NCBI GenBank assembly: GCA_021734405.1
Contig: JAIPJA010000001.1
Coordinates: 1,586-65,585 of the forward strand
Source: Minisyncoccota bacterium
Lineage (GTDB): Bacteria; Patescibacteriota; Patescibacteriia; Patescibacteriales; UBA12465
Direction of reading: 5' to 3'
DNA length: 64,000 nt
Shown: piece by piece, positions 5,943-52,683 of the stretch
How positions within the stretch are numbered: the stretch's first letter is position 1
How the letters are laid out: every line of letters begins with the position of its first letter
The notes under the pieces: generated by a model
Database searches by the model: none
What the model was told of the DNA's origin: nothing
The model's input: the letters and a program-made list of their open reading frames with translations, nothing else
Made by a program: the position numbers and the translations under genes

Positions 5943-6314
5943 CTAGGTTTCATTTATAAACTCAACTATTCTTTCTCTTTTTTCATTTGCCTGATCCGCT
6001 TTAAAATAAATTTCTAAAAATACAATCCTTTGATCACTGCCTAGATAAGCATATATAACACGAATACCGCTTTTTGCTCCACGCCCTTTTAGACTTTTAC
6101 ATTGAAATTTTTTTACTTTATAAAACTTTAAATTATCAGCATTACTCGCGCCCTCAATTTCAAAAATACTATTACTATCAACCTCCTGACAATGAAATAA
6201 CTCAATACGATATTGTTTGTTTGTTGCAAAATCATCTTTTAAAGTTGGAAATTTCTTCAAAAGCTTTTTGAAATCCCGTTTAAATTGAGCTGTTTCATCA
6301 TAATTAATTTTCAT
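5943..6314 (-). CDS. RelE/ParE-superfamily toxin (HigB/Gp49-like); the real start is probably the internal Met (MKINYDE)
   Basis: The C-terminal KSLKGRGAKSGIRVIYAYLGSDQRIVFLEIYFKADQANEKRE matches the Gp49/HigB fold pattern. Using the internal start gives an 11-nt overlap with the upstream antitoxin stop. Confidence 0.6.
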   Translation of the reverse strand: MKINYDETAQFKRDFKKLLKKFPTLKDDFATNKQYRIELFHCQEVDSNSIFEIEGASNADNLKFYKVKKFQCKSLKGRGAKSGIRVIYAYLGSDQRIVFLEIYFKADQANEKRERIVEFINET

Positions 6315-7086
6315 CGTATTTTCGAACGGAAAATTCATCGACACGAGAAAAAACCGCTTCATAATTAATAGGTTGCAAATCTTCAGTGCCGATCCATGGT
6401 ACGTCCTTATGGGAATAATCTCGCATTTTTGTTGCGTTAAAATCTTTAAATCTTTCAATTTCCCAATCAATCAGTTCTTTTTCTTGGGCAGAAAATTTCG
6501 ACAATTCAGCGGACCTCAGAGGTAAATATTTTTTTTGATCGTGCTGAAAATATTTCTTAGTTACTCTAACTAATTCTCCGTCTTGTTCCATCTGTGCAAC
6601 AATTTCCGGAAAAGCTACTGGTGTTGGTCCAAAATGATTCTTGATATACTTCGCTCCAATCAGCTGTTCTTCAAATTTTTCATAATAATCAAAGTCAATA
6701 AAGTACATAAGCTTGCACACTACGGCCTCTCCGATATTGGGGCGAGCGCCGATTCTTTCTAGAATATACAAGAGCGTTTCTTTAAATTTTTCAACTTTTT
6801 CCTGTGGCACAGAAATACGTACTTCTGGTTTTTGTGCTTTTGTTTTTTTAGCTTTTTTTAATTCAACTCTTGAAGAAGCTGGGTCTTGCCCGCTAATAAG
6901 CTCTTCAAAAGATAGTTTAAACAAATCACCAATTTTCTGAACTTCAGACAAATTAATCTCCCGCTCGCCTTTTTCTATTTGTATATAGGTCGGGCGCGAC
7001 AAACCAAGCTTACCTGCCATAAATTCCTGTGACAAACCTTTTTGTTCTCTTAGGCTTTTTATTCTTTTATATAAATTTTTAATCAT
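6304..7086 (-). CDS. Antitoxin: XRE-family HTH fused to a DUF4065/Panacea (SocA/GepA-like) domain
   Basis: The N-terminus is an HTH_XRE (LREQKGLSQEFMAGKLGLSRPTYIQIEKGEREI). The C-terminal KLMYFIDFDYYEKFEEQLIGAKYIKNHFGPTPVAFPEIV fits the DUF4065 core pattern (K-L-x-Y-F ... GP-x-P). Confidence 0.6.
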   Translation of the reverse strand: MIKNLYKRIKSLREQKGLSQEFMAGKLGLSRPTYIQIEKGEREINLSEVQKIGDLFKLSFEELISGQDPASSRVELKKAKKTKAQKPEVRISVPQEKVEKFKETLLYILERIGARPNIGEAVVCKLMYFIDFDYYEKFEEQLIGAKYIKNHFGPTPVAFPEIVAQMEQDGELVRVTKKYFQHDQKKYLPLRSAELSKFSAQEKELIDWEIERFKDFNATKMRDYSHKDVPWIGTEDLQPINYEAVFSRVDEFSVRKYDEN

Positions 7087-8038: not shown

Positions 8039-8287
8039 CGGTGTCTCCTTTTTTTCTTGATTATCTGTTGGAAAATTTTCACTAAACATAAAATTTTTAA
8101 CGTTTACTCCATTATGGTGCCTGACAGGCACGCTTGAATAGTGGGATCTAATTATCAATATATGTCATTTTTTATCTAACATTACTATACCATACTGGTT
8201 GTAAATGTCAAGGCTTTTTCGTTCTCTTAATTGAGTAGGCTCGATGTTCCAAGTTCACCACAATGGAACACCGAACTCACTCAAGAA

Positions 8288-9196
8288 TTAAAACGCCATT
8301 TTTTGGCGATATACTTTCTCTAGCTCCGCATCCGCTACGCCCATATAAAACATAGTTGTGTTAAGTTTGGCGTGGCCAAGCATCTTCTGCAAATATCTTG
8401 GATGAACATCATGCTCCACTGCCCTCTTGCCAAATCCATGCCTAAATGAATGAGCTGTCACCTTTTTCTCAATCCCTGCAATTTTTCTCGCTTTCCTAAA
8501 CATTTTCTGAACTGCATCTTTGCCAATACGAGATCCAAACTTTTGATTTGATAAATTAATAAATAATGCACTACTCTTATACAATGCTTTCTTTTCTAGT
8601 TTATTTCTTACTTCGAGCCACTTTTGAAGCAACTCATTGGTTTTCTCATCCCAATATATTTCCCTTTTATGATTTGATCTTTTAAACGTTTTGCATACCG
8701 CTTTCATCTCTTCAAAGTTTAAATCAGCGTAATCTATGCTGATCATCTCACTTAACCTGACACCTGTCGCATATAAAAATGTTAATATTGTTTTATCTCT
8801 TAATTGATCGGGATAAAATTCATCAAATACATCCTGCATCCTTTTAACTTCCTCTTTTAACACAAACGGATAATGCTCTTTATCATCCTGCTTTGGCATA
8901 GGAATAACATCATCGCCAAATTCAACCAATTTCTGCCTATGTAACCACCTCCAGAATGTTCGCAAGCTACAAAAATAACTTGCCTGCGTACTCTTTTTAA
9001 CTTTCCTCATCTCTGTTAAATACAAACCGTATTCAACAAAGTCATGCTCTTTGATGTCTACAACATCCTTCTCGGTGCCATCGCACCAATCAATAAAGAT
9101 TTTAAGCCCCCAACGATAAGATTGTACGGTCTCCGGGGAGTGACCGATTGCCAGCCAATCCAAAAATTGGCCGTACAGTTGTTCATTTTGATTCAT
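8288..9196 (-). CDS. int: Phage tyrosine integrase (XerC/D family)
   Basis: The C-terminal catalytic signature is HSFRHGFGKRAVEHDVHPRYLQKMLGHAKLNTTMFY (R..H-R-H..Y). Confidence 0.85.
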   Translation of the reverse strand: MNQNEQLYGQFLDWLAIGHSPETVQSYRWGLKIFIDWCDGTEKDVVDIKEHDFVEYGLYLTEMRKVKKSTQASYFCSLRTFWRWLHRQKLVEFGDDVIPMPKQDDKEHYPFVLKEEVKRMQDVFDEFYPDQLRDKTILTFLYATGVRLSEMISIDYADLNFEEMKAVCKTFKRSNHKREIYWDEKTNELLQKWLEVRNKLEKKALYKSSALFINLSNQKFGSRIGKDAVQKMFRKARKIAGIEKKVTAHSFRHGFGKRAVEHDVHPRYLQKMLGHAKLNTTMFYMGVADAELEKVYRQKMAF

Positions 9197-9209
9197 AACA
9201 CTTTTTGGT

Positions 9210-9250
9210 CGAAAGCCCTTAATTAATGGTTAATTAATGACTTTCGTGTT
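9210..9250. promoter_or_regulatory. Near-palindromic 37-nt element upstream of int (CGAAAG-ccc-TTAATTAATG-gt-TAATTAATG-a-CTTTCG)
   Basis: The direct repeat TTAATTAATG occurs twice and is bracketed by inverted CGAAAG/CTTTCG. A further hairpin lies at 9271-9290. Confidence 0.35.
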
Positions 9251-9457
9251 AAATTAATAATAGCCCCCTACATGGATATGCACATCCATGATTGGGTTAG
9301 AAAAGGCGGATTTTTGGCCGTCTTTTCGTTTTTTAAATATATTAAAACACCCTTTATGGGGGTGTATAATAACGTCGCTTAGCCATTTAAGTCAAGTTTT
9401 GAAGATAAAATAATTATAAAGAAAATATAAAGAAAAAATAAAGTTTTTTCACCCCTC

Positions 9458-9497
9458 AAAAAGCCAAAAGGCCCTCCGAAAAGGGCCTCGTTTTTAT
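9458..9497. terminator. Bidirectional intrinsic terminator ending the XRE-ImmA-hsdRMS-cargo operon
   Basis: Hairpin GGCCCT-ccgaaa-AGGGCC has T-tracts on both strands. Confidence 0.6.
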
Positions 9498-9568
9498 ATA
9501 AATTGTAGAATATTAGCTTTTTCATATCATGATATGCGATTATACCACGATATTGCTCATCAGTCAAC

Positions 9569-10126
9569 CTATTTCTTATTAAAACTCTTAACAATACTAG
9601 GTATCAAAATTGCATTTCTTTTCCAAATATGAGTTGATGAAAATTTCTTTTCATCTAACTTTATTATATCGACAAAACCACGATCAATAATAGCATCTAA
9701 GCAACTCCCCCATTCAATAAATGTTGTTCCAAATAAACTCTTTTTATAAATACCAGCCTGCGTTAATTTTAAATTATGGATACTGACCTCTGTCCCTGAT
9801 TTGATATCATTGATAGTTTTTTGCACTAATGGAGATGTCGCTTTTGACAAAATATAATTAAAATTTTTAAATGACTCCTCACTAGTACTGCTAAAATTTA
9901 AATCAATCTTATTTTTTCTATTATCGACCAATATTATTCTATTAAAATTTCCATGAAAAGTTTTGGCTCCATAGTAACTGGCAAATTGTCGCCAAGACTT
10001 ACATTTAATACTAACAATATCTTTGAAAAATATTCTGTTGCCTTTTTTTTCAATAAAAGTATTGGAAATTTTAACTTTGTACTTTAAATAATTTACAAGC
10101 TCAATTTCCTTTACATCCTCTTGCAT
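9569..10126 (-). CDS. Hypothetical protein, last gene of the RM-associated cassette
   Basis: It is an ORF with no recognisable motif and sits 22 nt from the upstream gene. Confidence 0.45.
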   Translation of the reverse strand: MQEDVKEIELVNYLKYKVKISNTFIEKKGNRIFFKDIVSIKCKSWRQFASYYGAKTFHGNFNRIILVDNRKNKIDLNFSSTSEESFKNFNYILSKATSPLVQKTINDIKSGTEVSIHNLKLTQAGIYKKSLFGTTFIEWGSCLDAIIDRGFVDIIKLDEKKFSSTHIWKRNAILIPSIVKSFNKK

Positions 10127-10148
10127 ATTTTTTATTTTAATAATTAAT

Positions 10149-10685
10149 TTATCCTAGTCGTCCGTAAACAAATTGCTTAAGTAATTCATGTGCATCTTTG
10201 CCCTCTTGTGTTTCGTTGTACGGCTTCTCATCAGTAGACACCCAGTTATACTCATTTAAGATTTTTAATGCATTATTTATATCTTGATCACTAAACTGAC
10301 TTTTAAGATCTTCTATTCTTTCATCTTTATTCTTATCATTTTCCCGATAAACAGCTAAAAAAAGCCTTCTTGCAGATTCATCAATTTTAGAAAAAATGAT
10401 AAAAGGACTATTCTCAATTTCTTTAACCTTACCCTGAAGTTTTAAATAATTATTTTCATCTTTAAAGTCAGCGGGTCCATACAAATTATTTGATTTATTA
10501 TATAAAATGATAAAAAATCCAATTATTGTAAAAAACGGTAACACAAGAAAAGCAATATAAAAAAAATTTGACAGTTTGTCTGACTCAACAAGTTTTGCCA
10601 TAAAACCAAAACCAGTCTCTGATAACAAAAACATAAGTCCGATAATCTGTAATGGCTTATCAATTTTTAATGGGTTAATACTCAT
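10149..10685 (-). CDS. Hypothetical membrane protein (2 N-terminal TM helices plus cytoplasmic domain)
   Basis: Hydrophobic segments are IIGLMFLLSETGFGFMA and FFYIAFLVLPFFTIIGFFIILY. It lies 2 nt downstream of the preceding gene. Confidence 0.45.
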   Translation of the reverse strand: MSINPLKIDKPLQIIGLMFLLSETGFGFMAKLVESDKLSNFFYIAFLVLPFFTIIGFFIILYNKSNNLYGPADFKDENNYLKLQGKVKEIENSPFIIFSKIDESARRLFLAVYRENDKNKDERIEDLKSQFSDQDINNALKILNEYNWVSTDEKPYNETQEGKDAHELLKQFVYGRLG

Positions 10686-10687
10686 AC

Positions 10688-11596
10688 TTATATTGCATTA
10701 TATGATTGTTCAATTAAATTAAACACATAATTCAAATCACTTTCAGAAGCCAAGACTACTTCTGTAACTCCTCCTCCATAGTGACCGATTCTTGTGACAT
10801 CTCTAGCAATTTTCTTTGGATCGTCTAGTTTGTTTATTGGAACTATCAAATGAAGTTTAATTTGAGATTGTTGAAGATGTAAATACAAGAAAGCTGAACT
10901 AGTCCTATATGAAATATAGTGTTTTTTTGCTCTTTCTTCGATATTATCATTAAGAGATAAAATTTTATCTCTCAAAGAATTAAACAACTCTACAACCCCT
11001 TTATTGATGCCATTTGTATGATCTTCAACAGTATAAACCTTAACCTCCTTGCTCACTTTTTCAATTGTTTTATTTTTTGAAATCTTATTTATTGACTCGC
11101 TCCTCTCCGATGATTTTAACTGTTTGTAAAGAATTGTATCATTGTCATATTTTTCTACTTCCCATAATTCAATTGGTAGATCTTTAAAATTAATTGCATT
11201 TTGTTGATATGTAGTAAATGATTGGGAAACAAAAACAACTCTTGATTGCGACCAATCAACATCACTCTTTTTTAAATTATTTCCAGTTTTTTCATTATAC
11301 TCAAGGATAAAATCAGCCTTATTATTAAGCATCAATGACAAATAAGCAAAGCCTTGATCTACTACGCTGAAATTCTTGTCTCTTTTATACTCAATAATCA
11401 CAAAAGATTTATTTTCTTCATCAAATGCCAATGAATCTATTCTAAAATTATGTAAACTGAATTCAGTGCAAACAAAATTGAGACCAAAAATACATTCCAA
11501 ATTATCTTCAGTTAGTTTTTGCAAATCTTTTTCAAGTTTTATTGTAACTTCTTTTATTGGGTTAAGTTTCCCACTTTTGATATTAAATATTGGCAT
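10688..11596 (-). CDS. Hypothetical protein with an N-terminal PD-(D/E)xK-like (HsdR-N-like) nuclease motif
   Basis: NFRIDSLAFDEENKSFVIIEYKRDKN resembles the D...E-x-K core of restriction-endonuclease-fold / HSDR_N domains. Confidence 0.45.
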   Translation of the reverse strand: MPIFNIKSGKLNPIKEVTIKLEKDLQKLTEDNLECIFGLNFVCTEFSLHNFRIDSLAFDEENKSFVIIEYKRDKNFSVVDQGFAYLSLMLNNKADFILEYNEKTGNNLKKSDVDWSQSRVVFVSQSFTTYQQNAINFKDLPIELWEVEKYDNDTILYKQLKSSERSESINKISKNKTIEKVSKEVKVYTVEDHTNGINKGVVELFNSLRDKILSLNDNIEERAKKHYISYRTSSAFLYLHLQQSQIKLHLIVPINKLDDPKKIARDVTRIGHYGGGVTEVVLASESDLNYVFNLIEQSYNAI

Positions 11597-11891
11597 ATAA
11601 TTCCTTGATAATATCCTACAAACATTATCATTATTTTTTATTTCTTTTAAATATTTTTAAATCGCTTAAAGATACTTTCGTTGTTTTTATTTCGATTATT
11701 TCCATATTCCTCAAAATACCTACTACTCCTAGCAACCCATACACTGAACCAATAAAAATTGAAATACATATTGTTACAACTCCAAGCCAAGGAACTACAT
11801 CAAACTTATACATAAAAAAAACCCATTGCAAAAAGTGCCGGGACTATTCCAACCGCTTTCATCCATCCAATTTTTAAATACTGTGCCATAC

Positions 11892-12647
11892 TTATTGATA
11901 ATATTTTTTAACAGTTTTTACATAGCTACAATAATCACAATCATCACCTGACTCTGGAATCTTATCATTTTGCAAACATTTATGAGCCTCGACTATTTTC
12001 CCTTCAACCCAACTATCGCTTCCTTCGTATGGAATTAATGTAATATCAAATTCGAGCTTTGCATCAAATGCTTTTCTGTCTGTTTGGCCATTACAATAAA
12101 CGAAATATCCAGTATTAGAAACTTTGTAGCCATTCTTCCTGAGCAACCACTGATAAATTTCCATTTGTCTTTTATAGCCATCTTGCCAATCTTTATCAAG
12201 TGCCTCAATTTTTTCCGTCTTGCTGGTAGATTTATAATCAACTACGATATACTCCTCTTTTGAATTAATCCATAAATCATCAATCGCTCCAAACATTAAA
12301 AAATTTGTCGGTTCATGCAAGAACTGAACCCCTGTAAAGTTATGTCTCCAAACATCAAGATCTTCATGCTCAACTGGAATCGCATCAACTCCATATTTTT
12401 CTATCAAGGGGTGTTTTTCGTTCTTTAATCTTAAAATATCAAACTCTTTTTTCAATAAAGCATCAACCGCACTATTTAAAGCAAATGGAAATCCGGGCGG
12501 TCTCCCAACTCCCATTTTTCTATCCAAATAAAAACATCTTGGGCAATCAATAAAAAGCTCAAGTTTTGATCGACTTAATTTAAATGGATCCGATGATTTT
12601 GGATCGTAAAGCCCTTTTGTGCGTTGTGAATTATAGTATTGTGACAT
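11892..12647 (-). CDS. Cas4/RecB-like PD-(D/E)xK nuclease with a four-Cys cluster
   Basis: RecB-nuclease motifs are GAIDDLWI (II), IVVDYKST (III) and RQMEIYQW (QhxxY). Cys pairs CPRC at the N-terminus and CDYC at the C-terminus resemble the Cas4 Fe-S arrangement. Confidence 0.6.
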   Translation of the reverse strand: MSQYYNSQRTKGLYDPKSSDPFKLSRSKLELFIDCPRCFYLDRKMGVGRPPGFPFALNSAVDALLKKEFDILRLKNEKHPLIEKYGVDAIPVEHEDLDVWRHNFTGVQFLHEPTNFLMFGAIDDLWINSKEEYIVVDYKSTSKTEKIEALDKDWQDGYKRQMEIYQWLLRKNGYKVSNTGYFVYCNGQTDRKAFDAKLEFDITLIPYEGSDSWVEGKIVEAHKCLQNDKIPESGDDCDYCSYVKTVKKYYQ

Positions 12648-12654
12648 AGCTTAT

Positions 12655-13350
12655 TTATTCTGAAGTTGAAGTTGATATATTGTTTATTTTTTGATTATCA
12701 GGAATATCATTATTTAAATTGTTGTTTTTATTAATCAATTCTTTCATTATCTCTTGGTAAACTCCGATTGTCTCTTCTGATTTATTGTTGTTAATATTTT
12801 GAACAACATCTTCCAATATTTCTTTTCTAATTTCACTGTCCTTATTTGAAATATCATCTCTTAATTTATCTATTTCATTATTGAGAGATCCTGAAGCAAA
12901 AAAATATCCAATAATCAATGAGACTATGGTAGTTAAAATAAAAGCAAAAGAGTCAAAAATTAAATCAATTAAGTTATCTGCCCATTTTCTATTCCATCTA
13001 TTTTTAAATTCTTGCCATTTGGTTATTTTTTTAATCTTCTGTAAATCTTTTGTATCATAGCTTTCTTTTTCTTTTCCAGTTTTGTCTGTTCTATCTATCT
13101 CTTTGATTTTTTTATCACCAATAATCTCTATATCATCTATATCATCTCTTTCATCTTTCTTACTCACTGCATCTGATGTGCTCCTAATATAATTATCAGA
13201 TCGTATAAAATCAAAATATTCTTTTTTTTCATCATCGCTTTTTCCTACATGTCGATCTCTAACATCCAAAGGAGTATTTCTAATTTTTTTAATTTTTTCC
13301 TTTCTCTTTTTCTTTTTTCTTTCAAGTTTTTTTTGTCTACTGCTTATCAT
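12655..13350 (-). CDS. Hypothetical single-pass membrane protein with K/R-rich N-terminus and coiled-coil C-terminus
   Basis: The N-terminus is the charged MISSRQKKLERKKKKRKEKIKK. One TM helix is LIDLIFDSFAFILTTIVSLIIGYFF. It overlaps the upstream gene by 14 nt. Confidence 0.45.
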   Translation of the reverse strand: MISSRQKKLERKKKKRKEKIKKIRNTPLDVRDRHVGKSDDEKKEYFDFIRSDNYIRSTSDAVSKKDERDDIDDIEIIGDKKIKEIDRTDKTGKEKESYDTKDLQKIKKITKWQEFKNRWNRKWADNLIDLIFDSFAFILTTIVSLIIGYFFASGSLNNEIDKLRDDISNKDSEIRKEILEDVVQNINNNKSEETIGVYQEIMKELINKNNNLNNDIPDNQKINNISTSTSE

Positions 13351-14035
13351 ATGAGCTTAACCACTTCGAATACGTTGTCTCTAATTCTGACAATGCTTTT
13401 TTAAGTTGATCGTCTATATTAGCCTTACTTAGTTTACTTAAAGCTGGTATAAAAAACTTCTGGTAATCAAAATTAAATTCTAATTTATCAACCTCTTTGT
13501 TTTTATTTAATCCATAAATAATATTTATATAGTCTTTTACACCCTTTTTTATTAAACCTTCTGTAGTCTGCTTCTTTTGTGAAAATGACATGCTAAAATT
13601 TTGTAGATTATCTACCGTTTTATTTGTTAACAAATCAATTGTTTTTTCAGATATATCAGTATTTTCAATATCGCAATAAAAAAGAACTCCTACCCTATTG
13701 ATATTCTCTATTGAAAATAAATCAAATATAGAATAAAAATATTCAGTAACTTTTTTTGATAAAAAATTGAATTTTTCTTCAAAATTATTATCTACTTTAA
13801 TCGAAACAATAAAATCATCAGAAGTTATCTTTAAATTCTCACCATTATTGTTGTATAGGGTTTTTTCTTTTGAGGAGGTCTCTGTTATTTTTGGAAAGAA
13901 TTTATTGTCAAATGGTGAATTTGGATCGTTTAATATATTATCAATAATCTCACCAGACATGTCTGGGATTCTAAAAGATCTTGAAAATCTAATTCCAAGC
14001 GTTATACCAACTATACTTTTTTTAATTTCTTGCAT
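13337..14035 (-). CDS. Hypothetical protein immediately downstream of hsdS
   Basis: It is an ORF with no recognised motif, 21 nt from the hsdS stop. Confidence 0.45.
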   Translation of the reverse strand: MQEIKKSIVGITLGIRFSRSFRIPDMSGEIIDNILNDPNSPFDNKFFPKITETSSKEKTLYNNNGENLKITSDDFIVSIKVDNNFEEKFNFLSKKVTEYFYSIFDLFSIENINRVGVLFYCDIENTDISEKTIDLLTNKTVDNLQNFSMSFSQKKQTTEGLIKKGVKDYINIIYGLNKNKEVDKLEFNFDYQKFFIPALSKLSKANIDDQLKKALSELETTYSKWLSSYDKQ

Positions 14036-14056
14036 ATTTTTAAAATTATTTAATTT

Positions 14057-15358
14057 TTAGCTAACAGTTATTTGTCCATTCATAAGCATCGGCAAAAGCC
14101 AGTCGCGCAAAGAAGATAATCTTTGATTTTCCTCCAAATTTTTCTGTTTCTTCTCTTCTATTTTTTCCATAAATTCGAAAAAAACATCTAATATTTGATT
14201 ATCAGGAACTACAATATAATTTTTATCTACAAAATTATCAAATAAAAAGTTTTTTATTCCTGAAGTTTTACCTTCGTAGCCAAAAAAAACTTTGCCATCA
14301 TACATCCTGTTCCAAAAATAATAAAAACTATAAATTAACTTACTATTTTTAAGTGTTATTGCTTTACAAAAATTTGAACAAATTAATGGTTTTGAGAATC
14401 TGCCCATTTTCGAATTTGAGATATAAGCAATACGCCCTGTAGATTGAGTTGGACTCCCACCAGATATTTCAATAATCAAATCATAAGGATTTAATATTTT
14501 ATGCGAATTTTTTTCAAGTATAAATCGCCTAGGAGGGTCGCATTGTTCTTTACCATTCAAGCCATTTATATCTGTTCCACGGATGCAAAATACATCTTGA
14601 GTATAATTTCCGGTCTTTTGATCTTTCCCCCAATCACCACTCTTGTCAGCCGATATTAAATCTTTAACCTTCTCAACACTCCATCCTTTGGGAACTTCGG
14701 CAACAAGCTTATTATTCCTATACATTTTACCTCCACTACTTTTATACGGCTTTCCTTGCTTGTTAGGAAACTCGAATTGCACAAACCAGTATTCATAAAA
14801 TGTTTTTGCTATACTATCTAACTTGTCATTTATTTCGTTATTAAGTTTAATTTTGGAATCAATAAACGATAAAATTTCAGCAATTTTTTTTTGATCTTCC
14901 GCTCTTTCAGGCACTTCAAATTTTAAATTACCAATATCTTCTGGCTTAATCGACGGATAAGAAGATGTAGCGTTCATGCCTAGATTATGGAGATATTCAG
15001 TAATTTGCTTTTGTGTTAAAAGGTAATAAATAAATTTGGGATCGATATTTTCATCTACTATATCTATAGTCGTAAATCCAGTTGATACAATTAAATTTTC
15101 ATCTGGATTTTCTAAGTAACCATAATGTTCTTGATTTGGTCTAACTGTCGAATAGATGATTGAGTTATTTTTAACTCGCCTCTTTGCTCTACTAGGTATT
15201 TTATCTTCCTTTGTATCAAGTATTTTCAAATTAACAATACTATTCTTTGTAATATTTCCAGTATCTAGATATTTAATAACATTAAAATTATCATCCTTCC
15301 CTAATGATTTTAAATTAAGATTTGATATTTTACTGATTTGTATAATTCTTCTATTCAT
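14057..15358 (-). CDS. hsdS: Type I restriction-modification specificity subunit
   Basis: It has two target-recognition halves with conserved spacer/C-terminal HsdS blocks (FEVPERAEDQKKIAEIL, RDWLLPMLMNGQITV). It overlaps hsdM by 8 nt. Confidence 0.8.
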   Translation of the reverse strand: MNRRIIQISKISNLNLKSLGKDDNFNVIKYLDTGNITKNSIVNLKILDTKEDKIPSRAKRRVKNNSIIYSTVRPNQEHYGYLENPDENLIVSTGFTTIDIVDENIDPKFIYYLLTQKQITEYLHNLGMNATSSYPSIKPEDIGNLKFEVPERAEDQKKIAEILSFIDSKIKLNNEINDKLDSIAKTFYEYWFVQFEFPNKQGKPYKSSGGKMYRNNKLVAEVPKGWSVEKVKDLISADKSGDWGKDQKTGNYTQDVFCIRGTDINGLNGKEQCDPPRRFILEKNSHKILNPYDLIIEISGGSPTQSTGRIAYISNSKMGRFSKPLICSNFCKAITLKNSKLIYSFYYFWNRMYDGKVFFGYEGKTSGIKNFLFDNFVDKNYIVVPDNQILDVFFEFMEKIEEKKQKNLEENQRLSSLRDWLLPMLMNGQITVS

Positions 15359-16985
15359 ACTTCAAATTATTCAATTTATGCTCAATTTGATCTTCCAATT
15401 GTTTAGATTTATGAAAACATTCTGATAATTCTTTTTTAAAATTATTAATTTTTTCTTCAAATTCTTTTATCGAAATATCAATATGCTCAATATTTATATT
15501 GAAATATTGACCAGTGCTAAAACTATAATTTTTCTCTTTCACCTCATCGAAGCCAACTACGACTGAAAAATTATCGACTTTTTCCTTATTAGTAAAGACT
15601 CTTACAATCTCTTGCTCTTCCTCTAAACTTAATACGGTTTTTTCATTTTTTCCATCAACTTTAATTTTTTCTCCCATTTTAGAAGCATCCATGAATACAA
15701 CTTTTTCATCTATATTTTCCTTATCAATAAATATTACTGAAACATTTGTTCCAGTGGTGGCAAAAATATTACTGGGCATGCTTATCACACCTTTTAGCAT
15801 TTTTCGATCAATTAATTCTTCCCTGATTTTCTTTTCAATTCCGTTTTGTGCTGTTATAAATCCCGTTGGAACAACAACAGCTGATTTACCTTTCTGTGAT
15901 AACGAATAAATAATATGTTGAAGAAATAAAAGATATATTGCCATTGATTGTTTTTTCTTTTTAGGTACAGTTGGTATACCAGCAAAAAACCTCTCACCAT
16001 TCTCCTTGGTATCAATATCCTCTCTCCAATTACTAAAATCCAACTTGAAAGGAGGATTTGAAACAATATAATCAAATTTCATCAATTCCTTTCCTTGCCT
16101 ATGGTAGGGATCTTTTATTGTATTACCTTGGATAATGTTATGAATTGAATGAACTAAATTATTTAAAATAAGATTTAATCGCAAAAGATGTGATGATTTA
16201 TCTGACAAATCCTGCGAATAAATAGTACATTTATCTTCACCAATCGCATGAGCGACGTTCATTAATAAGGTTCCCGAACCTGCTGATGGATCGTATACCG
16301 TAACATTACTCACTGGCTTATCAACCAAAATAGATGCCATAATTTTAGCTATGGCATGGGGTGTGTAATATTCAGCATAAACACCTCCCCCATCTTTATT
16401 ATAATCTTTAATCAAATACTCAAATATCGTTGAAAAGAAATCAAACTTTTGTTCAAAAATATCTTCAAAGTTAACATCAACTAGCTGATTAATTATAGCT
16501 TTTGAAAAATTATCTTTTTGTTTTTCAGAAAAGTTTTTTAAATATTCATCGACGCCATAAAACAACTGAATTTTATTCCCCTCTTCAGTTTTAACCGAAA
16601 ACACGTCATTATTGATTTTTGAAATATCTCTCAATGTATCACTGAAAAGCTTAGCAAACTGTTCACTGTTTTGCTGATTCCATAATGTCGAAATAAAATG
16701 ATCAGGATATAATCTCGCACTATCAGGACTCATTTTTTTAAGCAAAAACTCATAATCACTCTTAGAGTATTTTTTTATTACTTCTTCCCAGTTATCCGCT
16801 TTTTTAAGTTTTGAATCAAGCTCTTTTACTTCATATCCAAATTTGTCATTCATGAACTTATACAAAAAAACTTGGGTGATAATTTTAAATTCATCCCCAC
16901 TATTACCTAATCCATAATCACTACAAATTCCTTTCAGATTATCGATTAACTGTTTAGTTTTTTGAGTAAAATTTTGCTCTACCAT
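15351..16985 (-). CDS. hsdM: Type I RM N6-adenine DNA methyltransferase subunit
   Basis: Motif I is DPSAGSGTLLMN and motif IV is NPPF (YIVSNPPFKLDF). Confidence 0.9.
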   Translation of the reverse strand: MVEQNFTQKTKQLIDNLKGICSDYGLGNSGDEFKIITQVFLYKFMNDKFGYEVKELDSKLKKADNWEEVIKKYSKSDYEFLLKKMSPDSARLYPDHFISTLWNQQNSEQFAKLFSDTLRDISKINNDVFSVKTEEGNKIQLFYGVDEYLKNFSEKQKDNFSKAIINQLVDVNFEDIFEQKFDFFSTIFEYLIKDYNKDGGGVYAEYYTPHAIAKIMASILVDKPVSNVTVYDPSAGSGTLLMNVAHAIGEDKCTIYSQDLSDKSSHLLRLNLILNNLVHSIHNIIQGNTIKDPYHRQGKELMKFDYIVSNPPFKLDFSNWREDIDTKENGERFFAGIPTVPKKKKQSMAIYLLFLQHIIYSLSQKGKSAVVVPTGFITAQNGIEKKIREELIDRKMLKGVISMPSNIFATTGTNVSVIFIDKENIDEKVVFMDASKMGEKIKVDGKNEKTVLSLEEEQEIVRVFTNKEKVDNFSVVVGFDEVKEKNYSFSTGQYFNINIEHIDISIKEFEEKINNFKKELSECFHKSKQLEDQIEHKLNNLKYE

Positions 16986-19978
16986 ACTTTTGTGTTATTA
17001 AAATCGTAAAGATATTCTTGAGTTGCACAATTATTAATTAAATCCGCTGACTTGTTGTCCAATTTAATGCCGTGATTTTCAAAGCTTCCAATCACAATAG
17101 GACTCATGAATTTTATAAAATAATCTTCATTTTGAATCATTCTTGCATTATCTAGGACTTTTTGATCAGCTTGTTTTTTGATATCTGTTAAAGTTTCAAA
17201 AATAGTTATTTCTCTAGCATCAACATTCCTCTCTTCTAAAATTCTTTTATGAATTCTTGCGTATTTTTCATCATTCTCATATTTCGCCTTTAGCTGATTA
17301 TTTCTTCTATTTAGATCCGTAATCGCCTCATATATTTTCTCAAGCTCTTTGATATTAGCACTCATTTCTTCTTGGGTAATTTCATCAAGATTTTTCTTAT
17401 CAAATAATCTTCTCAACTCTTCATATAAAGCCACGAATTCTTTGTCATTTTTATCAAAATTTTTACCCATTTCCTCTCTTGTCTTTTTGAGCGTATTCTT
17501 TAGTTTATCAGCTATAACCATTTCTTCCTCTGATACCTTACGGAAAGTAAATATAACGTCTTCTAACGCAACATTCAAGAGGTTGGTTGTTTCTGAATTA
17601 TTCTCCAAAGAATCCTTTAAATTCACCAAGTTTAAATGATTTTCTGCCTCATTATAAAGCATAGCAAGTTTTTTGAAATCTATTTTATCCAAAAGTTCAT
17701 AATGCCCCATCAAACGAATGATATTATAAAGATTTTTTGCACTCATTAAAGCTTTTTTAATCTCTAAAATTTCTTGCTTATCTTGAATGGCAGATATTTG
17801 TTTAGAAAAATTCTCGGCGTTGACTAAATCAAATCTAAAAAGCCTGTCTTTAATAATTTCAATTTCCGATTCTATTTCTTCTTTAGATAAGAAAATATTT
17901 GAATAAGTCTCCATCTCATCACCAAGTTCGTCTTGCAACTCATCAAAATATGCTTTATTTGTGGCATCAAATTCTTTTCGAATATCGGCAAAATCCACTA
18001 CATATCCAAAATGAAAATCTTTATAAGGTCGGTTTACACGAGTTAATGTTTGTAATAAGTTATGTTTTTTTATAACTCTGCCTAGATATAACTTCTTTAA
18101 CCGCTTAGCATCAAAACCTGTTAAAAGCATATTGTACACAAATAGAAAATCAATCTTACCTTCTTTGAATTGGTCAATTTCATCTTTTCTTTCATCTTTT
18201 GTGCCGATATCATGTAAAATCAAACTCGCTGTTAAATTCTCGCTGTGTTTCTTATTAAATACTTCAAACATTTTTTTTGCCTGATCTGAACTATCACAGA
18301 CCACCAACGCACCAATACTATCATCACCGTACATAATTCTACTTTTATCAAAATCTGCAACAATATAGTCTAACATCGGTTCAACAAATTTTGGATGAGA
18401 ATAAACTTTCCTTTTATCAGCATCACCTTTCAATATTTTTATATCTTTTAATGCTTCTTGTAATTTAATCTTGTAACTAGTTTCAATATCCTCTCTTATT
18501 AATTTTAGAGTATATCCATCAGCTATCGATGAATTATAATAATATTTGTGAATATAGTCACCAAAAATAGCTTTTGAGCTTTTATCTTTACCGATGAGCG
18601 GAGTTCCTGTTAGTCCGATAATTATCGCTTCTCTGTCTGAAGTCATTAAATTAGCAAGAAAGCTTCCTTTTGGATCATAACTTCGGTGTACTTCATCTAG
18701 GAAATAAATTCTTTGAATGTTTGTACTATAAAGTCCGCAGTTTAAAACAGCGGTATCTTCTTTGAATTTTTGGATGTTAACTACAGTAATCTCAAGTTGC
18801 CCCTTTAAATTATGTATATTTTTATTACTCTGAAAATCCTTTAATAACTCATCTTTTGAATTTACAGTATGTACTACCAATCCTCGACTTGAAAATTCTT
18901 TTTTAGCTTGAATCAAAAGATCCAAACGATCAACTATAAAATAAAACTTAGGTATGATTTGTTTTTTCTGAAAATAATCAGTTAAATACTTAACATTATA
19001 ATAAGATAATGCAGTTTTTCCGCTTCCTTGGGTATGCCAAATAATCCCCTTTTTAATACCTTTATCAATTGACTGCTCGATTGCTTTGGTAGCAAAAAAT
19101 TGAGGGTATCTCATTACATGCTTTTGAAGTCCATCATGCTCTTTTACGTATGCGATTGCATATCTCAATAACATTGATAATCTATCTCTGCTAAATAATG
19201 AACTTAAGATTCTGTTAGTTGGTGAATCTATATCCTTGTTAGTTATAAACTCTGGGCTATGTTTTATAACATTTAAATTATTATCTTTTAAAACATAATT
19301 CTCTACTTCTTCGTCTTCTGGTTTTATGATCGAATTAACATCGAGCTTCTCCACTGCCACATCCTCTTTAAAAGCGTTAAATATTGCTCTATTATGTGAA
19401 GTGCTTGAATAATAAGCACCCTCAACCTGACCAATTGATTCCGAATCATACTCCATGTTATTTGAGAAAACAAGGAGTTGAGTAATATTAATAAATTTTC
19501 TAAATTTTTTATTTTGAAAACGAGTATTTATTCTATTCCTTTCAGCGATTATCCCCTCTCTATTGTTTGGCTTTTTTACTTCTATAAATGCCAAAGGCAT
19601 ACCGTTTATTAAAAGCGTGATATCTGGTCGAAATTCCTCATCTCCGTTTTTACAAGTAAGTTCTGTAACGACATGGAGTGAATTGTTATCAAAATTATCA
19701 AAATCTATTAATTTTATTTCATTTGATAGCAACATCTCATAAAACTCCTTTCCTAAGTCCTCATTATCCAAAACCAAAGATATCTTTTCGTATAATTTTT
19801 TTATCTCATCATCTTCAACATCTTTATTTATTGCCTTGATGCTATCAAAAAAAATATCTGTAAAAATATTTGTTTCAACATCCCATTTAGATGTTTTTAG
19901 TGATAAGTATTTATACCCCAATCTACAAAGATGTAATATTGCTGGTATTTTTACCCTTGTATCTTCATTGTAAGCCAT
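16979..19978 (-). CDS. hsdR: Type I restriction enzyme R subunit (endonuclease/helicase)
   Basis: The N-terminal nuclease motif is FRPDITLLINGMPLAFIEVKKPN. The helicase Walker A is HTQGSGKTALS and the DEAH-like box is FLDEVHRS. Size is 999 aa. Confidence 0.9.
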   Translation of the reverse strand: MAYNEDTRVKIPAILHLCRLGYKYLSLKTSKWDVETNIFTDIFFDSIKAINKDVEDDEIKKLYEKISLVLDNEDLGKEFYEMLLSNEIKLIDFDNFDNNSLHVVTELTCKNGDEEFRPDITLLINGMPLAFIEVKKPNNREGIIAERNRINTRFQNKKFRKFINITQLLVFSNNMEYDSESIGQVEGAYYSSTSHNRAIFNAFKEDVAVEKLDVNSIIKPEDEEVENYVLKDNNLNVIKHSPEFITNKDIDSPTNRILSSLFSRDRLSMLLRYAIAYVKEHDGLQKHVMRYPQFFATKAIEQSIDKGIKKGIIWHTQGSGKTALSYYNVKYLTDYFQKKQIIPKFYFIVDRLDLLIQAKKEFSSRGLVVHTVNSKDELLKDFQSNKNIHNLKGQLEITVVNIQKFKEDTAVLNCGLYSTNIQRIYFLDEVHRSYDPKGSFLANLMTSDREAIIIGLTGTPLIGKDKSSKAIFGDYIHKYYYNSSIADGYTLKLIREDIETSYKIKLQEALKDIKILKGDADKRKVYSHPKFVEPMLDYIVADFDKSRIMYGDDSIGALVVCDSSDQAKKMFEVFNKKHSENLTASLILHDIGTKDERKDEIDQFKEGKIDFLFVYNMLLTGFDAKRLKKLYLGRVIKKHNLLQTLTRVNRPYKDFHFGYVVDFADIRKEFDATNKAYFDELQDELGDEMETYSNIFLSKEEIESEIEIIKDRLFRFDLVNAENFSKQISAIQDKQEILEIKKALMSAKNLYNIIRLMGHYELLDKIDFKKLAMLYNEAENHLNLVNLKDSLENNSETTNLLNVALEDVIFTFRKVSEEEMVIADKLKNTLKKTREEMGKNFDKNDKEFVALYEELRRLFDKKNLDEITQEEMSANIKELEKIYEAITDLNRRNNQLKAKYENDEKYARIHKRILEERNVDAREITIFETLTDIKKQADQKVLDNARMIQNEDYFIKFMSPIVIGSFENHGIKLDNKSADLINNCATQEYLYDFNNTKVW

Positions 19979-20033
19979 ATTTATTATTTCTGTTTATTTG
20001 AATTATTTTATTCTTTTCAAATAAAATTGTTAA

Positions 20034-20579
20034 TTATATAACTAAGCTTCCGATTCTAATCATCATTGCTTGTTGACTAACATTATATTTTTTAGCCAAT
20101 TCAGCTATTGTTTTTAAATCATCATCATTATTCTTTATCTTATATTTACCTGATAAATCATTAATCATTTCATTTCTTGGCATCAATAATTCAGCTGCAA
20201 ATTGATTTGCCTGAATTTCTTTTATATTATTTGTATTTGATGTTGCGTTTGCATCTCTAAAATAAACATCAGATGAATCTACATGCATACTGCTGATGTT
20301 GTGCAACATAAAATGCCCAATTTCATGGGCGATTGTAAACCTTTGCCTATGTTCACAATGATCTTCATTTACAACAATAACAGGTTGGCCATCTTTACCT
20401 TTCATCTTTATAGCACCAGAAATTTCATCTTTTGAGAACTTCATCTTAGCTACTTTTATTCCAAGTGATTTTGCCACATCTTCAATTTTTACCGGGTAAC
20501 TATCAATCTCAAGCTTATTCGATATTTTTTCAGCTTCCTTGACGGCTAATTTAATTTTTTGATTAATAAAATTAGACAT
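20034..20579 (-). CDS. ImmA/IrrE-family metallopeptidase (anti-repressor protease)
   Basis: The HEXXH motif is TIAHEIGHFMLH. It pairs with the upstream XRE gene. Confidence 0.8.
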   Translation of the reverse strand: MSNFINQKIKLAVKEAEKISNKLEIDSYPVKIEDVAKSLGIKVAKMKFSKDEISGAIKMKGKDGQPVIVVNEDHCEHRQRFTIAHEIGHFMLHNISSMHVDSSDVYFRDANATSNTNNIKEIQANQFAAELLMPRNEMINDLSGKYKIKNNDDDLKTIAELAKKYNVSQQAMMIRIGSLVI

Positions 20580-20583
20580 ATGT

Positions 20584-20871
20584 TTATATATTATCTAAAT
20601 TCTTAGTATCATCTTTATTTAATAATTTAACATTATTACTAGTATCAATTCCTTTCATTACTTCTGTAATTTTCAAATCTAAAGCCTCTGCAACCAAATA
20701 AAGCTGAAAAGCTGAGATTTGTTGTTTTCCATTTTCTATTGCAGACAATGTGCTTTTATTAATATTTAAACCAGATTCTTTGCTAAATTCATCCAAAGAA
20801 TACCCCTTTTTGGTTCTTTCATCTTTGATTTTTTTCCCTAAATTTAAATAAAAACTTGCTTTATCAAGCAT
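20584..20871 (-). CDS. XRE-family HTH transcriptional repressor (phage cI/ImmR-like)
   Basis: The HTH is KGYSLDEFSKESGLNINKSTLSAIENGKQ. It sits directly upstream of ImmA. Confidence 0.8.
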   Translation of the reverse strand: MLDKASFYLNLGKKIKDERTKKGYSLDEFSKESGLNINKSTLSAIENGKQQISAFQLYLVAEALDLKITEVMKGIDTSNNVKLLNKDDTKNLDNI

Positions 20872-20903: not shown

Positions 20904-20974
20904 AGTATAGTTCAATCAAATATGTTTGTCAATAACAAACAGTGTTGACCTACACAAAACTCTTATGGTAAAAT
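20904..20974. promoter_or_regulatory. Back-to-back divergent sigma70-like promoters (phage genetic switch)
   Basis: On the minus strand, TTGACA (20927-20932) -N17- TATACT (20904-20909) drives the XRE operon. On the plus strand, TTGACC (20945-20950) -N17/18- TAAAAT (20969-20974) drives the small rightward ORF. Confidence 0.5.
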
Positions 20975-20977
20975 AGA

Positions 20978-20997
20978 ATGTGAGCGGTAACTCACAT
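20978..20997. promoter_or_regulatory. Operator-like perfect palindrome ATGTGAG-cggtaa-CTCACAT at the predicted +1 of the rightward promoter
   Basis: The arms are perfect 7-bp inverted repeats. The left arm TGTGAGCGG matches the first 9 nt of lacO1. A related inverted repeat (CCTCACAT-taa-TGTGAGG) recurs at 21254-21271. Confidence 0.45.
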
Positions 20998-21094
20998 CTA
21001 TTTACAGACACGACTTTGACAAGTCAAAGGTCGAGTGCCTTATCAACATATCTAGATTATACCGCTTTTTAAGAAAAATAACAATCGGAAGATT

Positions 21095-21229
21095 ATGTCC
21101 TGCAAAAAACAGCCAAGGCGAACAGCCTACAGGGATTCCGGCACTGGTCAATTCATAACAAAGCGTAAAGCTGAAAGAATGCCCCAGAGAGAAGTTGAAA
21201 AAGAGCGGATTAGAGTTGGAAAAAGATAA
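21095..21229 (+). CDS. Small basic protein (44 aa, MSCKKQPRRTAYRDSGTGQFITKRKAERMPQREVEKERIRVGKR); candidate Cro/Xis-like switch protein
   Basis: It is the only plus-strand gene in the prophage. It has its own promoter/operator and a terminator, with a weak GGAAG ribosome-binding site. The sequence is GC-richer than its surroundings. Confidence 0.35.
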   Translation: MSCKKQPRRTAYRDSGTGQFITKRKAERMPQREVEKERIRVGKR

Positions 21230-21246: not shown

Positions 21247-21280
21247 AAAAAAACCTCACATTAATGTGAGGTTTTTTTAT
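21247..21280. terminator. Bidirectional intrinsic terminator
   Basis: Hairpin ACCTCACAttaaTGTGAGGT has an A-tract before and a T-tract after. It terminates the plus small ORF and the minus late operon. Confidence 0.6.
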
Positions 21281-43877: not shown

Positions 43878-44005
43878 TTGACTAATCAGCTTTTTGCTGA
43901 TATAGTTGATTTGAGCCTTTTAATCGGAATGCACTCTGATTAAAAGTGATTCATAACACTTAAGACATCTACCCTGCGAATTCATGGGTAGGTGTCTTAT
44001 TTTAT
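43878..44005 (+). ncRNA. Candidate small RNA or attenuated leader: plus-strand promoter (TTGACT-N17-TATAGT) followed about 50 nt later by a strong intrinsic terminator
   Basis: The -35 is at 43878-43883 and the -10 at 43901-43906. The terminator hairpin AAGACATCTACCC / GGGTAGGTGTCTT (43962-43998) is followed by TTTTATTT. No ORF lies between them. Confidence 0.3.
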
Positions 44006-44248: not shown

Positions 44249-44373
44249 TTTCCACATGAATAATACAAACCAAAAAGGATTGTAATATCGATAATTACAA
44301 TCCCTTTTAAATATATAATGGTTTGAGTTTTTCTGCTAAGGTTACAAGACCTTTTCCATTGTGATACTGAAAC

Positions 44374-52026: not shown

Positions 52027-52683
52027 ATTAAAAAACAAGATCTGGGACAATCACCGCAAACAATTAACTTAGCCCTTAATGCTATTAAATTTCTATATTT
52101 AAAAATATTAAAAGATACCAAGAAAATTGATATAAAATTTACTAAAAGAAGTCAAAAGCTCCCTATAGTTCTCTCCCGTTTAGAGATTAAAAAAATTATT
52201 TCAGCTACCACTAACTCTAAATACCGCCTTATTATTTCCCTAGCTTATGGTTCTGGGTTGAGGGTTGGTGAAGTTGCTAAATTAAAAGCCAAAGATTTGG
52301 ATATAGAAGAGTTAGTTATATATATTAAAGAAGGTAAAGGAAGAAAAGATAGAATTAGTATACTACCAGAAACGTTAATAAAGGAGTTGCAAACCCTGTT
52401 AATTTCTAAAGATGGGGACGATTTTCTCTTTGAGTCTAATAGGGGAGCTAAGTTGACCACTGCTTCAATGCAAAAAATGTTTTATAAAAGTCTAAAGCTA
52501 GCTGAAATAAATAAAAAAGCCAGTTTCCATTCTTTAAGGCACTCTTTTGCTACGCACTTATTAGAAAATGGAACTGATTTGCGTTATGTTCAAAAATTAC
52601 TAGGACATAGAAATATTCGCACTACTCAAGGTTATACCCAGGTTACCAACCCTACCTTAAAAAATATTAAAAGCCCGTTATAG
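52027..52683 (+). pseudogene. 5'-truncated tyrosine recombinase (XerC/D-like) fragment; about 100 N-terminal residues are missing
   Basis: The catalytic C-terminus HSLRHSFATHLLENGTDLRYVQKLLGHRNIRTTQGYT is intact. The frame is open upstream to a double TAA at 52021-52026 with no ATG. The first possible start is a TTG at 52258. Confidence 0.55.

Follow-up and report, generated by a model that had tools for sequence, protein, structure and literature searches.

A putative repressor–protease gene pair recurrently placed ahead of restriction–modification genes in Patescibacteria

Within the 64,000-nucleotide stretch of the Minisyncoccota contig JAIPJA010000001.1 analysed here (hereafter the window), a gene for a putative repressor of the XRE helix-turn-helix (HTH) family is followed on the same strand by a gene for an M78 (ImmA/IrrE family) zinc metallopeptidase and then by a complete type I restriction–modification (R-M) system, all directly behind the last gene of a prophage. 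We found that the XRE–M78 pair and its control region form a switch module that recurs at ten distinct loci and is followed by R-M genes in seven of the nine whose downstream genes are known. The new element is this clade-specific fusion of a portable repressor–protease switch to diverse R-M systems, in a hotspot beside a prophage without a recognisable integrase. We consider it moderately probable that the pair is an ImmR/ImmA-like controller of a defence operon, autorepressed and released by its protease, which occupies a variable arm or hotspot behind the prophage.

A shared module ahead of unrelated restriction–modification systems

The shared module spans 1.25 kb and consists of an open reading frame (ORF) of ~44 aa on the opposite strand, an intergenic region of ~220 nt, and the XRE and protease genes. 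The ten loci are the window (with L173, at 93–98%), L001/L002/L172, L003/L004, L005/L006, L007/L008, L009, L010, L171, L174 and L175, among which L171 and L175 form a close pair. At the DNA level, the loci become homologous from the terminator of the small ORF onward; the homology ends exactly at the stop codon of the protease gene and picks up again exactly at a nuclease gene (11892-12647 in the window) to which we return below.

The R-M genes behind the protease follow it after gaps of 3–55 nt and vary in type and order (R-M-S, M-x-S-x-R, or R with a fused M-S). The order is hsdR-M-S in the window and L001, hsdM-PemK-hsdS-x-hsdR in L009 and hsdM-hsdS(-x-hsdR) in L171 and L175, while L003 and L005 carry an 836-aa R-like helicase and a (fused) methylase, then a SMODS gene. 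The two exceptions are L007, where the protease is followed by a 59-aa gene and a CHAP lysin, and L010, where a serine recombinase comes directly after it. As the R-M partners are mutually non-homologous, they point to repeated capture. The L003 locus reads rpsI, EamA, switch, R-M, SMODS and nuclease, with no phage genes.

To judge these counts we used a background of 124 M78 loci with at least 3 kb of downstream sequence (59 from IMG/VR and 65 from GTDB genomes); profile scans of the two collections had returned only generic M78 proteins of 30–46% identity, which were reused for this purpose. In none of the 124 was a co-oriented gene resembling hsdR or hsdM present within 6 kb, in a tblastn search with nine R and M queries that was not exhaustive. 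Given seven of nine against none of 124, the fusion of switch to R-M is a trait that marks this clade and is not shared by M78 proteins at large.

As a separate observation, positions 17997-20552 of L007, in a prophage whose switch lies beside a serine integrase, encode an S24 (LexA/CI-like) peptidase, with SAVED and SMODS genes behind it. The arrangement is that of a CBASS-like operon with a different type of self-cleaving repressor at its head.

The putative repressor and its protease

An earlier note on this stretch had described XRE, ImmA, hsdR, hsdM, hsdS and int genes; domain matches bear out all six where it placed them, on the minus strand. The XRE protein (20584-20871, minus strand, 95 aa) matches Pfam HTH_3 (E = 3e-12), the PADLOC models HTH_VI (5.5e-10), capH (5e-7) and R-M control protein (3e-5), and a PHROG transcriptional repressor (4e-11), and its nearest solved structures are SinR and C.BclI. 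The protease (20034-20579, minus strand, 181 aa) matches Pfam Peptidase_M78 (E = 3e-23) and has a HEIGH motif, whose residues H85, E86 and H89 are unchanged across 37 homologues. It consists of the peptidase domain alone, without a GAF domain. Its match to PADLOC capP (5.5e-34) covers profile positions 6–150 of 242, and its nearest solved structures, CapP (7t5t) and then IrrE (3dte), aligned only at their residues ~85–178 of ~291–301. Homologues in metagenome-assembled genomes of Patescibacteria are annotated ImmA/IrrE; a look-up of the exact protease sequence returned no record, and a single-protein scan of IMG/VR with the protease found nothing.

Cleavage of a repressor by the protease is established for the M78 family (10.1101/2022.04.27.489752; 10.64898/2026.05.16.725639), and ImmA has been reported to respond through RecA or a signalling protein. 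Among the known systems, the window resembles ImmR/ImmA of the Bacillus subtilis element ICEBs1 and phage phi105 (immR-immA-int) in having an XRE repressor gene and then a short HEXXH M78 protease gene (~170–180 aa) in the same operon, in a divergent promoter that faces the repressor promoter, in the protease's lack of the GAF domain with which CapP and IrrE sense single-stranded DNA, and in the occurrence of the module on mobile elements, with integrase neighbours in L007 and L010. The earlier note had seen this likeness; it holds for the gene pair (4-nt gap, co-directional, short HEXXH protease) and not for the linkage to int in the window, where a type I R-M system follows the protease and the recombinase lies beyond a host gene under its own promoter. 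Among the other loci, linkage to an integrase is present in L010 and nearly so in L001, L007 and L009 (serine recombinases). Further differences are that the divergent gene is a 44-aa ORF ending at a terminator and not an excision or transfer operon, that the module of the window has a third, antisense promoter, and that no such module is present in the nearest relatives of the phage.

CapH/CapP (Lau et al. 2022, 10.1101/2022.04.27.489752) is likewise an HTH repressor with an M78 peptidase that controls an anti-phage defence operon. CapP provides both the best PADLOC match and the nearest solved structure of the protease, and the defence association is shared, since R-M, SMODS and other defence genes follow the switch in the relatives. 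CapP, however, senses single-stranded DNA through a C-terminal GAF domain and carries a cysteine-switch loop, and the window protease aligns only to residues 88–177 of its 291. The CapH/CapP regulators also lie upstream on the opposite strand, whereas here they are the co-directional first two genes of the operon. Because the GAF domain and the divergent orientation are both missing, we do not class the pair with CapH/CapP; type I R-M is not among the CapH/CapP-associated systems named in that paper (10.1101/2022.04.27.489752). DdrO/IrrE of Deinococcus shares the logic of a protease that cleaves an XRE repressor, but IrrE is a protein of ~300 aa with HTH and GAF domains, and the pair controls a chromosomal DNA-repair regulon and not a mobile defence cassette.

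The control region

The intergenic region of the module holds three promoters that are kept in all ten loci. The first, proposed in the earlier note and present as TTGACA-17-TATACT at 20932-20904 (minus strand, 11 of 12 consensus positions), precedes XRE. A promoter scan of this 30% GC DNA returned 111 sites in the region against 88 ± 10 in shuffled sequences, and a single match means little by itself; what gives the XRE promoter weight is an invariant -35 TTGACA, together with a -10 box conserved at each of the ten loci. Over this -35 box lies an inverted repeat, TGTTTGT-N5-ACAAACA (20923-20941), a candidate operator that occurs once in the window (allowing up to two mismatches). It is kept in L005, L007, L009, L173 and L174 and differs in the L001/L003 group, where the XRE protein is only 55% identical. 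Its position over the -35 box argues for autorepression with induced release.

The second promoter (TTGACC-18-TAAAAT with an extended TG, 20945-20974, plus strand) stands back-to-back with that of XRE and serves the 44-aa ORF; its TGnTAAAAT is the kept form, and on the opposite strand GTCAAC and TATTTTAnCA are invariant or nearly so in the ten loci. The ORF itself (21095-21229, plus strand), divergent from XRE, encodes a very basic product (MSCKKQPRRTAYRDSGTGQFITKRKAERMPQREVEKERIRVGKR) without a Pfam or PHROG match, is 56–98% identical in L001, L005, L007, L010 and L171–L175, and was also called independently by gene callers. It is separated from the last phage gene, p108, by a bidirectional terminator at 21247-21278, a perfect 16+16 nt hairpin with flanking A and T runs; a similar CCTCAC...GTGAGG hairpin lies 3' of the 44-aa gene in L001, L005, L007, L009 and L174.

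The third promoter, P2 (TTGTTA-17-TATAAT, 21056-21084, minus strand), points towards XRE, and its GCGGTATAAT with a TTG 17 nt upstream is found at all ten loci. Downstream of it, a first hairpin (~21030-20998) is followed by a terminator-like hairpin with a T-run on the XRE strand (20977-20998). Both hairpins are kept, with double changes in 5 of the 24 predicted pairs (modest covariation). As predicted, P2 would yield an RNA of ~90 nt with two hairpins, antisense to the 5' leader of the 44-aa gene, in a convergent-promoter layout. Together, the small gene and the antisense P2 suggest control at a second level.

R-M controller (C) proteins are small HTH proteins encoded directly ahead of the restriction gene and autoregulated through an upstream C-box, and one may ask whether XRE, with the inverted repeat over its -35 box, simply times restriction on entry into an unmethylated host, with the protease as an accessory and the pair unrelated to stress sensing. 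We regard this as improbable. The PADLOC models for R-M control proteins do match XRE, if weakly (3e-5 to 6e-3), C.BclI is among its nearest structures, the cassette is clearly mobile between contexts, and a related phage described below carries a 66-aa XRE gene, without a protease, directly ahead of a type I R-M system at the same position. However, the XRE scores are those of generic HTH matches, and in this clade a protease gene is always present between XRE and the R-M genes, here just before hsdR, and is 67–93% conserved. To our knowledge, the C proteins that have been characterised belong to type II systems, and type I systems have other ways of escaping self-restriction once they have entered a host.

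The type I system and its place in the operon

The R-M system comprises hsdR (16979-19978; HSDR_N, SWI2_SNF2, ResIII and T1R_D3 domains), hsdM (15351-16985; N6_Mtase, E = 1.5e-67) and hsdS (14057-15358; Methylase_S in two stretches), all on the minus strand. PADLOC recognised the R-M genes as REase_I and Specificity_I (4e-70), and hsdR matches TIGR00348 at 3e-72 with 244 bits, under the cut-off of 284.55 bits. By gene content the system is complete and intact, and methylation of a bipartite target and ATP-dependent restriction are predicted. The earlier note had named degeneration of the R-M genes as one way in which its proposal could fail; we found no frameshifts, and over 8082-20434 an independent assembly (L213, SRR12088350) agrees at 100% identity and has the same gene calls. 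Compared with L001, the R and M proteins are 69–70% identical and the S proteins only 29–34%.

Behind hsdS come c1 (13337-14035, 232 aa) and c2 (12655-13350, 231 aa), both on the minus strand and the last two genes of the variable cassette. Read from its sequence, c2 appears charged and coiled-coil-like, with one membrane helix. Neither gene has a family match in Pfam, PADLOC, PHROGs or NCBIfam or was found in the relatives, and an AF2 model of c1 (pLDDT 44) was not used.

From XRE onward the successive gaps are 4, 55, -7, -8, 21, -14 and 7 nt. The coding regions of hsdR, hsdM and hsdS thus overlap, and hsdR starts 55 nt past the stop codon of the protease gene. An independent promoter or a terminator in that spacer was the other outcome that could have undone the earlier proposal. 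The 55 nt contain no terminator, and their sole promoter-like match (10/12, 20033-20005) is not above background; on the XRE strand, the first strong intergenic terminator is at 9489. On this arrangement, the R-M genes are very probably co-transcribed with the ImmR/ImmA-like pair. The earlier description of an operon behind XRE and the protease therefore stands as far as the tight, co-oriented packing goes, and falls where it made this one lysogeny operon ending in int. Its six cargo genes became seven ORFs between hsdS and the terminator with the addition of a 60-aa ORF, and one of the seven (11892-12647) is a host gene.

The prophage and the position behind it

The siphovirus-like prophage core (21296-44140, minus strand, 22.5 kb) runs from p47 and AAA_24 (44140/43825) to p108 (21296). 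Its genes encode a ParB-methyltransferase, TerL, portal, prohead protease, capsid, connector, tube, tape measure, tail proteins, a holin-like protein and an amidase; no integrase or repressor could be recognised among them. Megablast searches of GenBank phages with the region and with the phage gave no match, and close relatives are present in IMG/VR. The prophage sits after rpsI in the window and L201 and after ftsZ in L193, and this integration at different host sites points to a mobile prophage family. In L196 and L198–L200, AAA_24 has a p108 homologue immediately upstream, the arrangement predicted for a genome that closes into a circle at this point.

What follows p108 varies between relatives and often includes defence genes, and XRE–M78 is one of several alternative heads at this position. 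The position is occupied in L178 (tail-protein identity 95%) by a 452-aa ORF, AlbA-like by eye only, and a reverse-strand ORF that resembles an IS30 transposase by eye; in L184 (88%) by a Fic-like gene; in L187 (66%) by ATPase-like genes; and in L190/L208 (88%), over 14.6 kb, by a 66-aa XRE gene, hsdM, x, hsdS, DUF4238, hsdR, a YgjP-like peptidase gene and more. Looked at separately, L208 6811-16166 (IMGVR_UViG_3300035698_030367) is an independent, XRE-headed type I R-M system without an M78 protease at the same post-p108 position. The nearest phage relatives (88–95% tail-protein identity) have no XRE–M78 pair after p108 over 3–14.6 kb; the order p108 then switch is found in the more distant L005 (67%) and in L174. 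The comparison of gene order in related prophages that the earlier note called for thus upholds R-M or accessory genes after the last lysis-side gene, and does not extend to the XRE–M78 pair in the nearest relatives. As these lack it, the pair is not a lysogeny switch that this phage lineage conserves.

Defence cargo is well known from prophage and satellite hotspots, such as those of P2 and P4, rexAB with cI in lambda, and prophage-mediated defence in mycobacteriophages. The present case is alike in that different defence-like genes, including two different type I R-M systems, occupy a fixed position after p108; it differs in that a genome without the phage has a defence hotspot in the same chromosomal interval, and in that the cassette is only a candidate for a place inside the packaged genome.

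A proposed stress-released controller or a possible phage immunity pair

Under the reading that we favour, XRE would bind the inverted repeat over the -35 box of its own TTGACA promoter, as the behaviour of ImmR/ImmA, DdrO/IrrE and CapH/CapP leads one to expect. XRE, the protease and hsdRMS would be transcribed as one unit held at a low, autoregulated level. A stress signal, e.g. DNA damage or infection, would activate the protease, which would cut XRE and derepress the restriction operon, so that XRE, protease, hsdR, hsdM and hsdS would rise together. The switch would then be an exchangeable head, joined to several unrelated R-M systems in Patescibacteria.

Several points weigh against this account. 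Transcription, DNA binding and cleavage are proposed here from sequence and by analogy; the 44-aa gene and the antisense promoter have no assigned role in the mechanism; and the host nuclease lies just 7 nt behind the cassette, which implies unexplained read-through into a host gene. Since no other repressor or integrase could be recognised in the phage core, the XRE–M78 pair could still double as a phage immunity module. The phage-then-switch order recurs in L005 and L174, and in L007 and L010 the switch lies beside a serine integrase without R-M genes, as a lysogeny module would.

The latter points are shared with the strongest rival, the model of the earlier note, namely that XRE–M78 is the prophage's own ImmR/ImmA immunity pair and the R-M system a cargo that is expressed from the repressor promoter in lysogens, its expression changing when the protease cleaves the repressor at induction. 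We think this somewhat unlikely. Besides the 22.5-kb core devoid of any other candidate, it can call on the order lysis module–p108–switch in L005 and L174, with phage and switch proteins diverged to a similar degree (57–75% against 63–70%), on the switch abutting a serine integrase at the end of the element in L007 and L010, where the XRE–M78–recombinase order of L010 is that of immR-immA-int, and on an ImmA-sized protease gene co-directional with XRE. Yet the pair is missing after p108 in the phages of 88–95% identity, and one of these nearest relatives, or its close kin, is integrated at a different site. The phage contains no further copy of the operator repeat, its late genes are divided from the switch by a strong terminator, the L003 cassette has no phage genes upstream, and int lies beyond a host core gene and is independently inherited.

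Expression of type I R-M systems is usually taken to be constitutive. The recurrent fusion suggests that restriction is held low and released on a stress signal, which would change how one thinks about the cost of defence and self-damage in bacteria with genomes of ~1 Mb. A stress-released controller would also add to the regulators of the cleaved-repressor kind (ImmR/ImmA, DdrO/IrrE, CapH/CapP) a co-directional form without a GAF domain, joined to R-M genes in Patescibacteria. A broader and rather unlikely version would make the 1.25-kb module a portable bistable switch that is exchanged between integrase-less tailed prophages and serine-integrase islands and ties captured R-M systems to the signal that induces the element, with the interval from rpsI to the nuclease as a dedicated docking site. 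If true, type I restriction would be damage- or infection-inducible in ultra-small bacteria.

The host backbone and a defence hotspot

The region is a mosaic built around a conserved backbone of host genes, rpsI ... PD-(D/E)XK nuclease ... prfB-comEC. In the window, alaS, rpsM, rpsK, rpsD, rpoA, rplQ, rplM and rpsI lie on one side and prfB and comEC on the other, and homologues of the protease and of other genes carry the names Parcubacteria, Falkowbacteria, Pacebacteria or Patescibacteria. Variable region 1 (44,373 to 12,648) contains the prophage core and, directly behind the last phage gene, the 8.6-kb cassette of switch, R-M system, c1 and c2. Variable region 2 (11,891 to ~5,900) contains a 60-aa ORF, c4, c5, c6, the recombinase unit, a 92-aa ORF and an XRE–Panacea antitoxin-like gene. 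The stretch described in the earlier note therefore covers parts of two variable regions and one host gene.

That gene, at the end of variable region 1, encodes a PD-(D/E)XK (Cas4/RecB-like) nuclease of 251 aa (11892-12647, minus strand). It has more than 8000 homologues, of which the top 120 are all at least 74% identical. Between the window and L209 (GCA_054038795.1) the nuclease is 85% identical, against 78% for RplQ, 73% for RplM, 64% for RpsI, 63% for PrfB and 59% for RpoA; its conservation thus exceeds that of ribosomal proteins across Patescibacteria (85% versus 64–78%, in one genome pair). L209, which has neither phage nor switch, reads rpoA-rplQ-rplM-rpsI, 7.6 kb of defence-like genes (Eco57I-like methylase, Fic, T5orf172/ResIII), nuclease, a small TM+FtsK-gamma gene, prfB and comEC. 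Given this conservation and a gene order kept in a phage-free genome, we take the nuclease gene for a host core gene and not for cargo. An idea that it might be the recombination partner of the phage AAA_24 protein was dropped once this status had emerged. In every genome seen (the window, L209, L211, L001, L003, L005 and L175), variable R-M or other defence-like genes precede the nuclease gene in the same orientation, in many cases only a few nt away; the gene has the look of an anchor for a defence hotspot, or of a last gene shared by those operons.

Whether the cassette is packaged with the phage or resides in a chromosomal hotspot we consider roughly even. In favour of phage cargo are three loci with the order phage then switch, accessory genes after p108 in every relative, and the fact that phage proteins and switch proteins have diverged to a comparable extent between the window and L005. 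In favour of a resident island are the rpsI-to-nuclease defence hotspot of phage-free L209, the L003 cassette without a phage, the strong terminator between p108 and the cassette, and the failure to find attachment (att) repeats at the junctions. A comparison of the Fic gene after p108 in L184 with that of the L209 hotspot, tried as a test between island and cargo, was uninformative at only 25% identity. GC content was dropped as a discriminator of origin, the differences being too small (host 0.30–0.32, phage 0.35, cassette 0.28–0.30), and so were missing Shine-Dalgarno sites as a sign of a foreign cassette, since such motifs are rare in host and phage genes too.

A hotspot also raises the question of whether the pair is a neighbour of R-M genes only through a shared insertion site, being itself a toxin–antitoxin-like module for addiction or abortive infection, similar in type to RosmerTA or spr1629. 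The protease does match PADLOC RmrA models (4e-20 and below) and the NCBIfam spr1629 repressor/antitoxin family (2.6e-16), and the interval from rpsI to the nuclease is filled with unrelated defence genes in L209 and L211. However, RosmerTA and spr1629 are HTH–M78 fusions of ~380 aa with a partner toxin, whereas here the genes are separate and no toxin candidate precedes them; the score is 59.7 bits against a family cut-off of 335. Gaps of 3–55 nt, constant orientation and homology that ends at the protease stop codon argue for operon fusion, an arrangement found in none of the 124 background loci. We consider this possibility very improbable.

Type I R-M systems on genomic islands have been reported in Patescibacteria (PMC12455944). 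These islands are alike in carrying horizontally acquired, complete type I systems in Paceibacteria-type genomes; they differ in that the report has no XRE–M78 head, prophage neighbour or rpsI–nuclease hotspot. This hotspot and the small prophages without a recognisable integrase offer handles on the mobile DNA of uncultured bacteria.

The recombinase unit and searches for attachment sites

The int of the earlier note is a XerC/D-like (XerC/D/A kind) tyrosine recombinase gene (8288-9196, minus strand; Phage_integrase, E = 1e-33), 10.8 kb from the switch pair and beyond a host core gene and a terminator. The gene and ~370 nt upstream of it are conserved in L176 (86% in protein, 80% in DNA) and L177 (70%), where RadC and unrelated genes lie upstream, without a switch or R-M genes. 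No homologue was found in any switch locus or phage relative, and a single-protein IMG/VR scan with the recombinase likewise returned nothing. As a unit with its own promoter (9567-9539, minus strand) that is inherited without switch or R-M, the recombinase is not the end of an immR-immA-int operon; most likely it belongs to variable region 2. The terminator upstream of it (9489-9468, minus strand) lies ~75 nt past the unit promoter, and the two may form a possible small RNA. A palindrome, CATGGAT-GTGCAT-ATCCATG (9271-9290), 75 nt upstream of the recombinase start, could be a site for the recombinase or for a regulator. Just 3' of the recombinase gene (8100-8211) there is also a conserved promoter with a structured element.

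An exact 15-bp direct repeat, AAGTGTTATGAATCA, occurs at 43947-43961 and 9189-9203 and is rare by chance. One copy overlaps the start codon of the recombinase gene and the other lies in the p47–AAA_24 spacer of the phage, with near-identical motifs in both contexts in relatives (L201, L176). It was ruled out as an att core, as both flanks are native (the recombinase side as in L176/L177, the phage side as in L201, L192 and L193). At the rpsI–phage, p108–switch, c6–int and post-int junctions, no repeats rose above shuffled controls. Some 60 nt just past the rpsI stop codon (CACAATGGAAAAGGTCTTGTAACCTTAGCAGAAAAACTCAAACCATTA; 44300-44373 in the window, 120-190 in L201) are conserved between the window and L201 but not in L209 or L003; they could be a small RNA, a leader or part of a phage attachment site.

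Other features of the window

No tRNA or Rfam family was detected in the window. Variable region 2 starts with the 60-aa membrane ORF (11631-11813, minus strand), which in comparison with L209 is probably a truncated 5' part of the host TM+FtsK-gamma gene. It is followed on the same strand by c4 (10688-11596, 302 aa) and the unknown genes c5 (10149-10685) and c6 (9569-10126). The c4 protein has a DUF5655 C-terminus and aligns over nearly its whole length with PDC-S18, a candidate defence gene of PADLOC (E = 3e-121); its N-terminal region is NucS-like in a weak match (E = 0.003). Between the recombinase gene and prfB, a gene for an XRE-HTH fused to a SocA/Panacea antitoxin domain (6304-7086) overlaps a 175-aa ORF (5943-6470), and the two are a probable toxin–antitoxin pair. 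On the other side of the prophage, beside murB, a 141-aa fragment (52258-52683, plus strand) matches phage tyrosine integrases in its C-terminal half only (PHROG, E = 5e-34) and is probably the remnant of another integrated element.

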